From: Gammaproteobacteria bacterium
GTDB taxonomy: Bacteria; Pseudomonadota; Gammaproteobacteria; JBCCGL01
Assembly (NCBI GenBank): GCA_965277715.1
Contig: OZ255836.1
Coordinates: 2,336,001-2,400,000, forward strand
Direction of reading: 5' to 3'
Length of the DNA stretch: 64,000 nucleotides
How positions within the stretch are numbered: the stretch's first letter is position 1; every line of letters begins with the position of its first letter. The position numbers were made by a program, and so were the translations under genes. This document shows, one piece after another, positions 30,087-37,198 of this stretch. The notes under the pieces are model-generated. The model saw only the letters and a program-made list of their open reading frames with translations. It had not been told where the DNA came from and ran no database searches.

Positions 30087-30632
30087 CTACACCGGAATCA
30101 CCTTCAGAGAAGGTTTTTCAACAGTATTCAAATACATTTTCTCTTTTTTTCCTTCCTGGTCTAACTCCAACACAAACCGATAATTGTAAATACCGGGCGG
30201 CAAATCACTCAACACCATCCCCGCCCAGTAGTAGTACACCGGCGTATAGGGTGAACGCACCCTGTCGGGGCCACCATAAATCTTGAACTCAGTCATAATC
30301 TTGACTTCCGCAACATCCTCATGGTCGCCTTTATCATCGTCAAGAAACACAATATTATTAAGCTTGGCCATAGGCGGCCAAGTACCGTCAGGCCGTTTTT
30401 CCATATCAACGGCATAAATAATAAAATTAATAATCTGCCCCTGCTTACAGACAGTTTGCAAATGACCCGTGCCCTGGCCAGTTCCGCCGACACTGTTATC
30501 CATCATATAAATACTGTTTTCAACCGTTTCAGTGGCCACCGCTTTGTCAATATCCAGCACGGTAACAATATTTAACTGGACAGAATTAAGTTGGCCTGGG
30601 TTCTGCTTTTTTATCTTGGTAGAATTTAACAT
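30087..30632 (-). CDS. AidA/PixA-like hypothetical protein, paralog 4
   Basis: VLDIDKA..IYMMDNS..GQGT..YWAGMV..GIYNY..PSL motif series shared with its three neighbours. Confidence 0.6.
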   Translation of the reverse strand: MLNSTKIKKQNPGQLNSVQLNIVTVLDIDKAVATETVENSIYMMDNSVGGTGQGTGHLQTVCKQGQIINFIIYAVDMEKRPDGTWPPMAKLNNIVFLDDDKGDHEDVAEVKIMTEFKIYGGPDRVRSPYTPVYYYWAGMVLSDLPPGIYNYRFVLELDQEGKKEKMYLNTVEKPSLKVIPV

Positions 30633-30727
30633 GATACTCTCCGTTACAGATTACGGTGAACCGTGATAGCGACTCACCTGCGTTAGCAAAAAAATAGAGA
30701 TATAAAATTGATACGCGTTTAACGTGT

Positions 30728-31159
30728 TTATGACCCTCTGCCCACAAGGGAGAAAGTCGGTGCCGAAACTATCGGTTCATCACGGGTGCCCACTTTATAA
30801 CTAATACAATAGGGAACAATATCGACAGGCTGTTTAACAATGCCGGACCAATAGGCAATATCGGTGCCTTCATAGATACTCTTTTTTACATCGCAATAAT
30901 CGCTGTCTATGACTACATCGTCGATGGCCGCGTAAGCTTCAGACTCCAGAGGCCCGACAATCCAAACCAACCTGTCGCCTTTCTCCACTACCGTTCTTAT
31001 ATGCTCAGTCCCCTGGCCTGTGGAGCCATTTACCTTATTATTGTCCGCCAGGTAAATTTGCCCACTCAGGCTATCAGTCGCCAAGGTACCCACCACATCA
31101 ATCACTGTGATTATCGTGATGGTTTTTACACTCGTTTTCTTTACTGCTTTTTTTTTCAT
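30728..31159 (-). CDS. AidA/PixA-like hypothetical protein, paralog 3
   Basis: VIDVVG..IYLADNN..GSTGQGT..GDRLVW..YWSGIV. Confidence 0.6.
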   Translation of the reverse strand: MKKKAVKKTSVKTITIITVIDVVGTLATDSLSGQIYLADNNKVNGSTGQGTEHIRTVVEKGDRLVWIVGPLESEAYAAIDDVVIDSDYCDVKKSIYEGTDIAYWSGIVKQPVDIVPYCISYKVGTRDEPIVSAPTFSLVGRGS

Positions 31160-31274
31160 GATCGTTTCTCCAATAATATTTATTACAATTCACCCCATAA
31201 AACAGACGTTTGTATCTCATCAAAAGGGATAATGGGGATGGGTCACTATGTGTGTTTTACCGTTGAGGACTTGC

Positions 31275-32102
31275 TTACATAATAGGGAGCATGCCCTTGT
31301 CTGCATGGGTAAACCCGTTGACCTTGGGATTATTGGTAACATTGATATAGGCATCGATACTCATATCTACCGGTACCCAAATCCATTCTTCATCGATCCA
31401 GGAGAGTTGGTGTAACTGGATATGCATGGTGTAGGCATAGGTTCCGGTTTTCGATGAATCCACAGAACCACACCAATACCAGCCATCGGTTACCAGTTCG
31501 GGAGAGCCATATTCAGCCACATACATGACTTTTTTATCCACGGCTTCACCGGTAATATCGGTAATGATCGGGCTTATGGAACTGACCTCAGGCATCGATG
31601 TCTGGATGTCACTGACCAGTTCGCCGGTGACATCAATAATCTTTTGCCCGGCAGTACCAAGATCACGTTTGGTACCCTGGTACTTATTTTTGCGTTTGGT
31701 CTTGATACCGGTATTGGCGGTAATTCTTTTCAGTTCCTCCAGAATGGAGGCTGTATCGGCAAATCTATTTTCTTCGGTGCTTTCAACCCTGTCTGCCAGT
31801 GCTTTAATTTCGTTAATTGCTCTAAGATCGCTGTGTTTTGATTTATCGGCAAGAAAGCTTTTAGGCATGGTTGGCGGAATAGAACCAAGCGCCACGGGTA
31901 CCCAATTTAATATCTGTTCATTTGCCATGCTTCCATCTAGCCAGTGGCTGCCATTAAGCCTGGAAACCAAGGCATCGGTTCCCAGGGCTTCAGACCCCTG
32001 TAATTTCATATTGTCGAACATGTAGGTGTTGTTTTTTAATGTGTTGGCCTCGATTGCGGCTTCCACATCGATCATTACGACGACGCCGAGTTGTTGGCTC
32101 AT
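31275..32102 (-). CDS. AidA/PixA-like hypothetical protein, paralog 2, with a central charged insertion
   Basis: MIDVEAA..TYMFDNM..GSEALGT..ILNW..YWCGSV..GTYAY. Confidence 0.58.
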   Translation of the reverse strand: MSQQLGVVVMIDVEAAIEANTLKNNTYMFDNMKLQGSEALGTDALVSRLNGSHWLDGSMANEQILNWVPVALGSIPPTMPKSFLADKSKHSDLRAINEIKALADRVESTEENRFADTASILEELKRITANTGIKTKRKNKYQGTKRDLGTAGQKIIDVTGELVSDIQTSMPEVSSISPIITDITGEAVDKKVMYVAEYGSPELVTDGWYWCGSVDSSKTGTYAYTMHIQLHQLSWIDEEWIWVPVDMSIDAYINVTNNPKVNGFTHADKGMLPIM

Positions 32103-35792: not shown

Positions 35793-35816
35793 TTTAATTA
35801 CCGGAAAAAAAACTGA

Positions 35817-35957
35817 AGGAATGTGCATTGAATAATTTACGTTTTTATAATATTTTTTGAAAAACCAGACACTTTTTAATAGCGCACTCAAGCCAGCTCA
35901 GTTATAAGGTAAATCAATGAATTTACGAATCCCGTAATTTATTTAGTGCACGTTCCT
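35817..35957. repeat. MITE family B (~140 bp), copy 1
   Basis: Imperfect terminal inverted repeats AGGAATGTGCATTGAATAATT and AATTTATTTAGTGCACGTTCCT; aligns with 58308-58447 and, inverted, 40482-40605. Confidence 0.75.
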
Positions 35958-35996
35958 AATAAATTACCCCTGGATAATCCAGAATTTTTCTACATA

Positions 35997-37198
35997 TTAA
36001 TTAAGGTTTTCGCAGAACCTTTTAATGCGCTCACAACCCTCGATAATATCGCTGTTAGAAGCGGCATACGACATTCTGAAATACCCTTTTTCACCAAAGG
36101 CACTGCCCTGTACCGTGGCAACATTTTCCTCTTCGAGCAGTGCCTGAACAAAATCCTCATCGCTTTTGATAAATGTGCCGGCCCGCGATTTTTTACCTAT
36201 CACCTCCCGGCAGGAAGGGAACACATAAAAAGCCCCCTCTGGGATGGGGCAGTACAAATATTGACATTGCCTCAACATTGCAACAGTCAGGTGGCAACGC
36301 TCCTCAAATGTTTTTTGAAAGGTCTTAAGGTGCTCCTGTGGCCCGTCCAGCGCTTCAACGGCAGCCCATTGTGAAACAGTACAAGTGCCAGAAGTCTGCT
36401 GGCTCTGTAAAAGAACCATTGCATCAATCAACCGCTTGGGACCGGCAGCGTAACCAACGCGCCAACCCGTCATGGCGTGGGCCTTGGACACACCGTTTAG
36501 TGTCAGGGTCCTGTCATAGAGCGCCGGTTCCACTTGTGCCGGGGTCACATATTCAAGCCCGCTGTAAACCAGGTGTTCATAGACATCATCGGTCAGCACC
36601 CAAACATGTGGGTGATCCATTAATACATCGGTCAGTGCCTGCAGTTCGGTTGGGCTATAAACCGCACCTGACGGATTGGATGGCGAGTTCAAAAATAACC
36701 ACTTTGTATCCGGTGTGATGGCCGCCCGTAAGTCATCCGCCTGAATTTTGAATCCGTGCGCCATCCGGGTGCCAAGAAAAATAGGATGCCCTCCACACAT
36801 AGAAACCATTGAAGGATAAGACACCCAATAGGGGCTTGGAATAATAACCTTATCGCCTGCATTCAGGCTGGCGCGCAGGGCGTTGTATATCACGTGCTTC
36901 ACACCATTGCCGACAATGACCTGGCCAGGTTCGTAAGACAAGCCGTTTTCGCGCTTGAATTTGCGGCAAATGGCCTCCCTAAGCGCCAGGATACCGGCAA
37001 CCGTGGCGTACTTTGTTTTGCCGCAGTTGATGGCGTCGATGGCAGCCTGCTTGATATGATCCGGTGTATCAAAGTCAGGCTCTCCGGCAACCAGGGAAAT
37101 GACATCAACGTTTCTAGCGCTCAGTCACGCACTTTTTGTGTGATGGTGATAGTTTCTGAAGGTTGTACAAAGGCATTTTTTGATAAAAACATCGTCAT
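35997..37198 (-). pseudogene. Class I/II aspartate-type aminotransferase with a single-base frameshift near 37124
   Basis: [14 protein letters not shown](stop) in one frame; [21 protein letters not shown]...NSPSNPSG...DDVY...[13 protein letters not shown] in the next. Confidence 0.85.

Follow-up and report, generated by a model that had tools for sequence, protein, structure and literature searches.

Introduction

The question raised by the locus described here is what a decarboxylase and an adenylating ligase do beside four small proteins that are related to one another. The locus occupies positions 30087–37198 of the window, which is the whole 64,000-nucleotide (nt) stretch that was analysed (contig OZ255836.1 of the Gammaproteobacteria bacterium assembly GCA_965277715.1, positions 2,336,001 to 2,400,000). 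Inspection of the open reading frames (ORFs) gave seven minus-strand genes, all co-oriented and transcribed in the order aminotransferase, decarboxylase, ligase, a, b, c, d, the last four encoding the related proteins (paralogs). An initial annotation, made from the sequence alone, had described a seven-gene operon; the seven co-oriented genes were recovered, but the conserved core at the locus was found to consist of six (decarboxylase, ligase and a-b-c-d; the cassette), the aminotransferase being accessory and frameshifted. Both gap lengths quoted in that annotation were confirmed exactly, at 21 nt from decarboxylase to ligase and 28 nt from the ligase to the likely start codon (ATG) of a; the remaining gaps are 74, 115 and 95 nt.

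To our knowledge, some twenty years of work have linked PixA, AidA and MakC/MakD to nematode killing, quorum sensing and a Vibrio toxin, with no biochemical function known. The near-perfect linkage of four such proteins to putative amine- and amide-forming enzymes makes the function of the family experimentally testable, and the questions to be put are which amine is made, which acid is activated and whether the product is bound by the proteins or attached to them.

Conservation of the six-gene cassette

Species-representative genomes gave 245 pattern matches, 209 of which encode a relative of the ligase; the 80 best were retrieved with flanks of 10 kb, and these loci were scored by tblastn with the proteins of the window. 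Decarboxylase, ligase, a, b, c and d were all present in 78 of the 80 loci, the other two being cut by contig ends, and at the complete loci each paralog had its own ortholog. The order decarboxylase-ligase-a-b-c-d was kept on one strand in 76 loci. In two Acidobacteriota loci (L016 and L019) ligase-decarboxylase and a-b-c-d form two convergent operons; a third locus of this phylum (L023) is cut, and the paralogs are in view only in the other two. By record title, the loci were distributed over six phyla (59 Actinomycetota, 12 Cyanobacteriota, four Pseudomonadota, three Acidobacteriota, one Aminicenantes and one Bacteroidota), with flanking genes that differ in every lineage and a six-gene block that is constant. 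Median gaps at the five junctions were 9–51 nt across loci, using heuristic start calls. Mean pairwise identities among the window and 16 diverse loci were 62% for the decarboxylase, 64% for the ligase, 47% for a, 47% for b, 48% for c and 54% for d.

Co-occurrence was assessed in 301 genomes of a single actinobacterial family (that of genome G001). The ligase (E ≤ 1e-30) and paralog d (E ≤ 1e-10) were found in the same 15 genomes, 2–3.6 kb apart, and 286 genomes had neither. A profile of d, run against five cassette genomes, matched only the cassette's own paralogs. The initial annotation had made its proposal depend on the paralogs accompanying the enzymes elsewhere, and this is what was found, both in the 78 loci and in the 15 genomes. 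Record titles and run labels place the cassette in bloom-forming cyanobacteria (Dolichospermum, Aphanizomenon, Nodularia and Microcystis), in Prochloron, in many Streptomyces and Actinomadura, on conjugative plasmids of rhizobia from soybean and Sesbania nodules and in a bacterium of sponge metagenomes.

The literature on MakC/MakD, on PixA/AidA and on PaaK-like ligases together with decarboxylases was searched and yielded no paper describing this gene combination. The earlier statement that no named pathway has this layout held, as neither the literature searched nor the family libraries gave a match to a characterized pathway. The six genes are inherited as a unit, one that is horizontally mobile, widespread but sparse, and the cassette is almost certainly a real functional unit. 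It joins two small-molecule enzymes to four related proteins, a combination for which no description was found in print.

Decarboxylase

The decarboxylase gene (34239..35792, minus strand) lies in a frame that is open over 34239–35891, with a TTG at 35891. The ATG at 35792, giving 517 amino acids, was preferred as the likely start because this length fits the orthologs. The protein matched PF00282 (2.7e-56, 191 bits against a cutoff of 27) and its best solved relatives were GAD67 (6.7e-60), GAD65, GADL1 and CSAD. A DAHK motif is present in 78 of 79 orthologs, its Lys aligning with that of NPHK in GAD67; with the PF00282 match above the gathering score, this pyridoxal phosphate (PLP) lysine bears out the group II PLP decarboxylase proposed initially. 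The Tyr of the catalytic loop distinguishes a decarboxylase from an aldehyde synthase. In 77 of 79 orthologs an ASYVF motif aligns with A[SG]YLF of two GAD67 chains, so that this Tyr is kept; it is named as Tyr335 in the part of the CSAD preprint that was available (10.1101/2020.09.25.308866). A third motif, GRQF[ST]G, was found in at least 75 of 79 orthologs, and its Phe aligns with a Ser of GAD67 at the position of CSAD Phe94. That residue (Tyr in GADL1) is described in the same partial source as blocking larger substrates (10.1101/2020.09.25.308866).

The cassette enzyme resembles GAD65/67, CSAD and GADL1 in the PLP lysine, the HKMM context, the catalytic-loop Tyr and the Phe at the CSAD Phe94 position, and differs from them in an Arg preceding the pocket motif (GRQF). 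It lies under the NCBIfam equivalog cutoffs for PanP (171 versus 606 bits, far below), RhbB (146 versus 900 bits) and MfnA (81 versus 299 bits). The enzyme is assigned by its motifs as a predicted true decarboxylase of the GAD/CSAD clade and not an aldehyde synthase.

Two single-base indels between metagenome populations were observed at this gene, one at 34256 within the last five codons (runs X4, X5 and X7) and one at 35805, upstream of the ATG (X4).

Ligase

The ligase (32646..34217, minus strand) comprises 523 amino acids. Pfam at E ≤ 10 returned neither PF00501 (AMP-binding) nor any other family for it, and likewise zero families for the four paralogs. NCBIfam matches were partial (FlxY, DVU_1553 and PaaK models; TIGR02155 at 18 bits against a cutoff of 646). 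The sequence profile matched 4r1l, the structure of the PaaK-like protein BT_0428, at 8.6e-10, and an AlphaFold2 (AF2) model of the ligase (pLDDT 69) searched with Foldseek gave BT_0428 (1.3e-19) and PaaK2 (7.6e-18) with TM scores of 0.58–0.61 on the target. Further neighbours of the model were PaaK1, 2-hydroxyisobutyryl-CoA ligase (HCL), AjiA1, NatL2, ClxA and EhpF; the E values for BT_0428, PaaK1/2, HCL, AjiA1, NatL2 and ClxA ranged from 1e-19 to 1e-12.

The core motifs of adenylate-forming (ANL) enzymes are a Ser/Thr/Gly-rich phosphate loop, a GRxxD motif and a C-terminal catalytic Lys. Residues S147-G148-G149-T150...P155, G387-R388-x-G390-D391 and K515 were invariant in all 17 sequences of the ligase alignment (A1). 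Profile, fold and motifs together upheld the earlier description of this protein as a PaaK-like ANL ligase.

The PaaK family includes coenzyme A (CoA) ligases and CoA-independent ligases that form esters or amides. The cassette ligase shares its fold and adenylation motifs with members such as PaaK1/2, BT_0428, HCL, NatL2/AjiA1, ClxA and DdaG; it is about 90 amino acids longer and only 14–19% identical to the solved members. In the Atlas it falls in PaaK-family clusters, one neighbouring cluster carrying DdaG_C. Scoring of 8000 candidates gave 424 clusters with E ≤ 0.001. The 120 clusters listed, the ligase's own excepted, are 60–77% identical to the query, derive from cyanobacteria, actinobacteria, proteobacteria and others, and, where they are named at all, are called 'hypothetical protein' or bear a phenylacetate-CoA ligase name, one being called 'CoF synthetase'. 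Sequence and model alike assign the protein as a putative divergent PaaK-type ANL enzyme that forms a tight family of its own and is not a PaaK ortholog.

Accessory aminotransferase

The first gene of the block (35997..37198, minus strand; body ORF 35997–36941 in the ORF listing) encodes a class-I, aspartate-type aminotransferase in two frames (PF00155, 2.9e-63, 214.7 bits; truncated body against the NCBIfam aspartate transaminase model NF004769, 1.3e-116). In this assembly the frame is interrupted by an in-frame TGA at 37127–37125; frame A (37198–37127, 24 codons) and frame B (37124–35997, 375 codons) are both open, with 2 nt (37125–37126) between them. Contigs from X4 and X5, which are public metagenome runs from different studies, carry one extra base behind 37124 (T in one, C in the other, giving the same amino acid on the coding strand) and have a continuous frame; run X3 did not cover the site. 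The broken gene may reflect a true deletion in the window's population or a misassembly at a polymorphic site. Only four of the 80 loci have a class-I aminotransferase within the block, placed between the ligase and a, and these enzymes are about 30% identical to that of the window and were therefore recruited separately.

Four MakC/MakD-like proteins

The four paralogs are a (32177..32617, 146 amino acids), b (31275..32102, 275 amino acids), c (30728..31159, 143 amino acids, with a Lys-rich N-terminal tail) and d (30087..30632, 181 amino acids), all on the minus strand. The frame of a is open over 32177–32665, and the ATG at 32617 was taken as its likely start. All four are acidic (isoelectric points of 4.6–5.4 in the window) and, as read from the sequences, have no signal-peptide-like hydrophobic stretch at the N-terminus.

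Each protein matched the NCBIfam model NF049870 (MakCD), with E values of 1.4e-10 (a), 2.9e-8 (b), 3.1e-15 (c) and 2.9e-11 (d); the bit scores (43.5, 56.3, 33.8 and 41.3, listed without paralog labels) are all below the cutoff of 110. Profiles of all four matched the solved structures of MakC (8rqy) or MakD (6tct) at E values between 1.3e-18 and 6.9e-7: for a (profile A2) 3.6e-11 with 8rqy and 2.3e-9 with 6tct, for b (A3) 2.6e-8 with 8rqy, for c (A4) 1.3e-18 and 1e-14 and for d (A5) 9e-10 and 7.9e-9, respectively. PF12306 (PixA) gave no match in any paralog even at E 10, and the profiles did not reach the PixA structure 4lzk. By this evidence the proteins classify as relatives of MakC/MakD that fall outside the NF049870 subfamily as NCBI defines it.

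Among the paralogs a structure model was obtained for b (AF2, pLDDT 66). It predicts a β-sandwich formed by residues 1–72 and 179–259 and interrupted by an insert of about 100 amino acids, which consists of a helical hairpin and a basic, low-confidence stretch. Foldseek returned MakD (3e-7, TM score 0.80) and MakC (TM score 0.79 on the target), then the PixA structures 4lzk and 4pib, and 4q52. The initial description of AidA/PixA-like paralogs therefore stands for b at the level of the fold, whereas by sequence the matches are to MakC/MakD and not to PixA. Taken as a whole, that first interpretation was largely right and is partly supported here, the corrections being the six-gene core and the likeness by sequence to MakC/MakD.

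Paralog d is the best conserved of the four (mean column identity of 57% in alignment A5) and has an invariant Cys62. For its family, 1971 candidates were scored and 350 clusters (90% identity) reached E ≤ 0.001, compared with the 424 among 8000 for the ligase; all names on the 120 clusters listed are 'hypothetical' save for one UniRef label, 'Nematocidal protein AidA'. A complex prediction of a, b and c with d as the partner scored 0.86, against 0.67 for a control in which chain 2 had been exchanged; the prediction speaks neither for nor against binding.

MakC and MakD of the V. cholerae makDCBAE operon are, like the paralogs, small, cytoplasmic and signal-less and are encoded side by side. 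Vibrio has two, in contrast to four distinct proteins in the cassette, of which b carries the insert; MakC/MakD are linked to the MakABE pore-forming toxin, the cassette paralogs to a decarboxylase and a ligase. By Pfam, no pore-forming toxin family was found in 13 island and 84 flank proteins (14 diverse loci), no search having been aimed at MakA, MakB or MakE. In the available part of the Vibrio study MakC and MakD are cytoplasmic and are treated as exclusive to V. cholerae (PMC11484084).

The PixA/AidA family (PF12306; 4lzk and 4pib; Xenorhabdus PixA, Burkholderia AidA and Bnr1) has the same β-sandwich (Foldseek E values of 2.6e-5 to 1.5e-4), and as in the cassette there are several paralogs per genome and the function is poorly understood. 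The available part of a study of this family describes PixA, AidA and Bnr1 as quorum-sensing regulated and poorly understood, and aidA as strongly CepR-regulated (PMC9060813). A quorum-sensing link exists on both sides, since in one Methylovulum metagenome-assembled genome (L014) the genes luxR, DUF4902 (RsaM-like) and luxI (5967–7919) lie directly upstream of the decarboxylase; these neighbours hint that this cassette may be under quorum-sensing control, by analogy with aidA in Burkholderia. Unlike the cassette paralogs, neither PixA/AidA nor MakC/MakD have reported enzyme partners.

A further single-base indel between metagenome populations (X4 and X7) falls in a run of A at 31147, right where paralog c begins.

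Accessory genes at other loci

A cysteine-hydrolase gene of the isochorismatase family stands beside 18 of the 80 cassettes; the closest relatives of its products are amidohydrolases (biuret, RutB and nicotinamidase). Six of the 80 cassettes have a GNAT-like gene at their side. The window has no hydrolase, GNAT or 3-deoxy-d-arabino-heptulosonate 7-phosphate (DAHP) synthase gene of these accessory kinds. In the Prochloron locus (L001) a HEARO RNA (138.8 bits) with an HNH/RRXRR ORF lies between decarboxylase and ligase (8265–9778), and the 1.6-kb gap between these genes is due to this insertion. Rfam at the gathering score, run on six loci, returned only this HEARO RNA and a group II intron, both in L001. 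None of the six cassette proteins matched a defence system in PADLOC, which returned only weak PLP-fold matches to SspA and DndA.

Proposed function and alternatives

The reading that we favour, with a confidence somewhat short of even, is that the cassette would encode an amine-to-amide pathway, with the four proteins assembled in the cytoplasm as its partner or its target. The most likely substrate of the decarboxylase is a short acidic amino acid, such as aspartate, cysteine sulfinate or cysteate, and the primary amine released would be β-alanine or of the (hypo)taurine type; aspartate or cysteine sulfinate is suggested as the substrate because of the active-site likeness (the Phe at the CSAD Phe94 position). 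The aminotransferase, where present, may make this substrate from the corresponding 2-oxo acid. The PaaK-type ligase would adenylate a carboxylic acid, and the acyl group would be passed to the amine directly or via CoA to form an amide. Products of the accessory genes, the cysteine-hydrolase amidase or the GNAT-like protein, plausibly act on this amide or on its amine. Finally, and as the weakest step, the four acidic, signal-less proteins, made in a fixed order and probably in fixed proportion, may assemble with one another in the cytoplasm, the hetero-assembly serving to bind, store or present the product. The amine-plus-amide chemistry of the two enzymes is judged rather probable; non-covalent binding by a hetero-assembly of the four proteins is put forward tentatively, as something that we would sooner doubt than expect.

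Several points weigh against this reading. Every functional step (product, substrate and complex) rests on family likeness, and nothing in the evidence separates a CoA thioester from an amide as the ligase product. The clade of the decarboxylase also includes Trp, Lys and diaminobutyrate decarboxylases (4obu, 5o5c and 2qma, at about 1e-40), and in the available part of the CSAD preprint a Phe94-to-Ser exchange did not switch the specificity, so that this residue alone is not decisive (10.1101/2020.09.25.308866). MakC/MakD, the only studied near relatives of the paralogs, have no known ligand or function as far as the accessible text of that study goes (PMC11484084). A class-II DAHP synthase (four of the 80 loci) and a chorismate mutase (two of the 80) occur in or adjoining the cassette. 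The DAHP synthase gene directly follows d in L016 (13430–14833), L019 (13012–15312) and L054 (13842–15155), overlapping the stop of d in the first two, and in L016 and L019, both from Acidobacteriota, the decarboxylase gene is followed by one for chorismate mutase. These genes argue for an aromatic precursor instead of, or besides, an acidic amino acid; the aromatic building block could equally be the acid partner of the amide. The cassette is also rare: in a sample of 301 genomes from the class of G002 it was carried by G002 itself and by none of the other 300, a result that bears on rarity and does not amount to another independent test of co-occurrence. In the window itself the aminotransferase is frameshifted and the two enzymes lie on a long end branch (0.38), and decay of this copy of the cassette has to be reckoned with as a possibility.

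The main rival, which we consider unlikely, is covalent modification: the ligase would attach the adenylated carboxylate, or the amine of the decarboxylase, to one or more of the four proteins, with the cysteine hydrolase as an eraser. Some ANL enzymes do acylate proteins, for example LuxE and DltA. The obligate linkage of the enzymes with all four proteins speaks for such a role, as do the invariant Cys62 of d and the amidase-type hydrolase beside 18 of 80 cassettes; both enzymes are moreover unusually conserved between phyla (minimum identity of 50–56%), which would fit recognition of protein partners. The alignments of the paralogs stand against it, with no conserved C-terminus in any paralog, no carrier-protein motif and no Lys, Glu or Asp that is common to all four and invariant only in cassette members. 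The residues that the four do share lie in the N-terminal stretch aligning to MakC/MakD and so appear to be family-wide rather than cassette-specific.

A bolder and similarly doubtful reading makes the cassette a new kind of small-molecule system centred on proteins, in which a hetero-assembly of the four PixA/MakCD-fold proteins would be covalently decorated or stoichiometrically loaded with a β-alanine- or taurine-type amide. It supposes that the dedicated decarboxylase and ligase produce this amide, that the hydrolase reverses the loading and that the loaded particle is the active agent, for instance a deterrent against eukaryotic grazers or hosts. If true, this would be the first biochemical function for the whole PixA/AidA/MakCD superfamily. 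Many of the organisms that carry the cassette live with, or are grazed by, eukaryotes. Among them a γ-aminobutyric acid (GABA), β-alanine or taurine-type product could have ecological weight.

It is quite improbable, though less so than the explanations that follow, that the four proteins do not touch the product and serve instead as stabilizers, scaffolds or regulators of the two enzymes, or as regulators of their expression. The NF049870 model carries the label 'MakABE regulator', and the available part of the Vibrio study reports that a makC makD double deletion lowers the levels of MakB and MakE and the secretion of MakA and that MakC forms large complexes in the cell (PMC11484084). These effects may be polar, and the authors call the functions of MakC/MakD unknown (PMC11484084). 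Four distinct, individually conserved paralogs are moreover many for a chaperone of two enzymes, and in L016 and L019 the enzymes and the paralogs are in the separate convergent operons already described.

A known pathway in disguise would be polyamine or 1,3-diaminopropane synthesis with siderophore supply by an NRPS-independent siderophore (NIS) route (dat/ddc or rhbAB type), β-alanine supply for pantothenate by PanP, or an aryl-acid pathway of the benzoxazole/phenazine type (NatL2/AjiA1). The decarboxylase does match the PanP and RhbB models, weakly (171 and 146 bits), NatL2, AjiA1 and EhpF are among the structural neighbours of the ligase, and some loci contain a DAHP synthase and an isochorismatase-family gene. 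The PanP and RhbB scores, however, fall far short of their cutoffs (606 and 900 bits), the closest relatives of the isochorismatase-family genes are amidohydrolases and not EntB or PhzD, and MakC/MakD-fold proteins are absent from all of these pathways. Pfam found no IucA/IucC, ADIC synthase or dehydrogenase, and no hydroxylase or acyltransferase of the siderophore kind, in the island and flank proteins listed above, which agrees with the initial remark that the genes of siderophore clusters are lacking. We regard this explanation as very improbable. That the enzymes and the paralogs are chance neighbours, unrelated modules sharing mobile DNA, is close to refuted: mobile-element repeats bound the block here and an IS110 element adjoins it on a plasmid, but the same six genes stay together in six phyla despite different flanks, the presence and absence of ligase and d match perfectly among the 301 genomes and the paralog family is found nowhere else in the five genomes checked.

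Mobility, borders and origin

In the window the cassette lies within a block (30084–37255) bracketed by repeats, a copy of an insertion sequence (IS) end downstream and an element resembling a miniature inverted-repeat transposable element (MITE) upstream. The IS-end repeat (29966..30083, 118 nt) is 95.8% identical to 12127–12243, which abuts an IS4-family transposase ORF (10734–12098); it is a solo copy and sits immediately after the stop of d. At 30083/30084 the X4 and X5 contigs break away from the window sequence and run on into about 3.5 kb of dissimilar DNA; the depth is raised at this point. The MITE-like element (37256..37440) contains nested inverted repeats, with a near-perfect palindrome of about 60 nt (37320–37380) and self-matches on the opposite strand. 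Its word depth is 36–220 times that of neighbouring bins in four metagenome runs, and many contigs end or join inside it. An Rfam search of 27000–41000 of the window at E ≤ 0.1 gave no riboswitch or leader, only sub-threshold miRNA-hairpin matches on this palindrome. An X5 contig that joins 30083 to 37256, leaving out the entire block, was considered as an empty site and rejected, the shorter side being 28 letters long and both borders being repeats.

Near-identical copies of the cassette were found in eight runs of four studies, five of the eight runs being labelled sponge metagenome. The cassette is carried by seven plasmid records, four of which are typed as conjugative. On a conjugative nodule plasmid of Bradyrhizobium elkanii (L081, NZ_CP126037.1, 128544–144028) it is followed by a cysteine hydrolase gene and then by an IS110 transposase; the annotation of that record reads 'pyridoxal-dependent decarboxylase', five times 'hypothetical protein' (the ligase and the four paralogs) and 'cysteine hydrolase family protein'.

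The window encodes a Gram-negative set of proteins (TolC, LpxL, WaaA, DegP and TopA), and its WaaA is nearest to those of uncultured Gammaproteobacteria (45–48% identity). The GC content dips from about 0.55 in the flanks to about 0.44 across an island at 27.8–41 kb of the window. A FastTree phylogeny of ligase plus decarboxylase was computed from the window and 29 of the 80 loci, 51 loci, mostly of Streptomyces, having been dropped. The window nests inside a cyanobacterial clade with an SH-like support of 100 and Prochloron as its nearest neighbour, on an end branch of 0.38; the root is a midpoint root only, and the direction of transfer is not formally fixed by the tree. We infer that the cassette would have entered the gammaproteobacterial island as a block between the IS end and the MITE-like element, from a cyanobacterium-like source.

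Neighbouring genes

Beyond the IS-end border a low-GC pair of genes on the same strand (27886–29822) encodes a KAS III-like ketosynthase (334 amino acids) and a polytopic membrane protein of 306 amino acids, the latter with a helix-turn-helix-like C-terminal tail and without a Pfam family. These genes were considered as members of the cassette and rejected, since they have no counterpart in the 80 loci by tblastn and lie outside the border. Upstream of the cassette the island contains a small GGDEF protein (37496–38203) and a coiled-coil-like protein of 222 amino acids without a family (38313–38981); scattered GGDEF matches also occur in L002 and L015. Farther upstream, at 39169–40088, is a pair consisting of a three-transmembrane (3TM) holin of the gene-transfer-agent (GTA) type and a GH108 lysozyme, and the region 37496–40088 looks like a phage or GTA lysis remnant.

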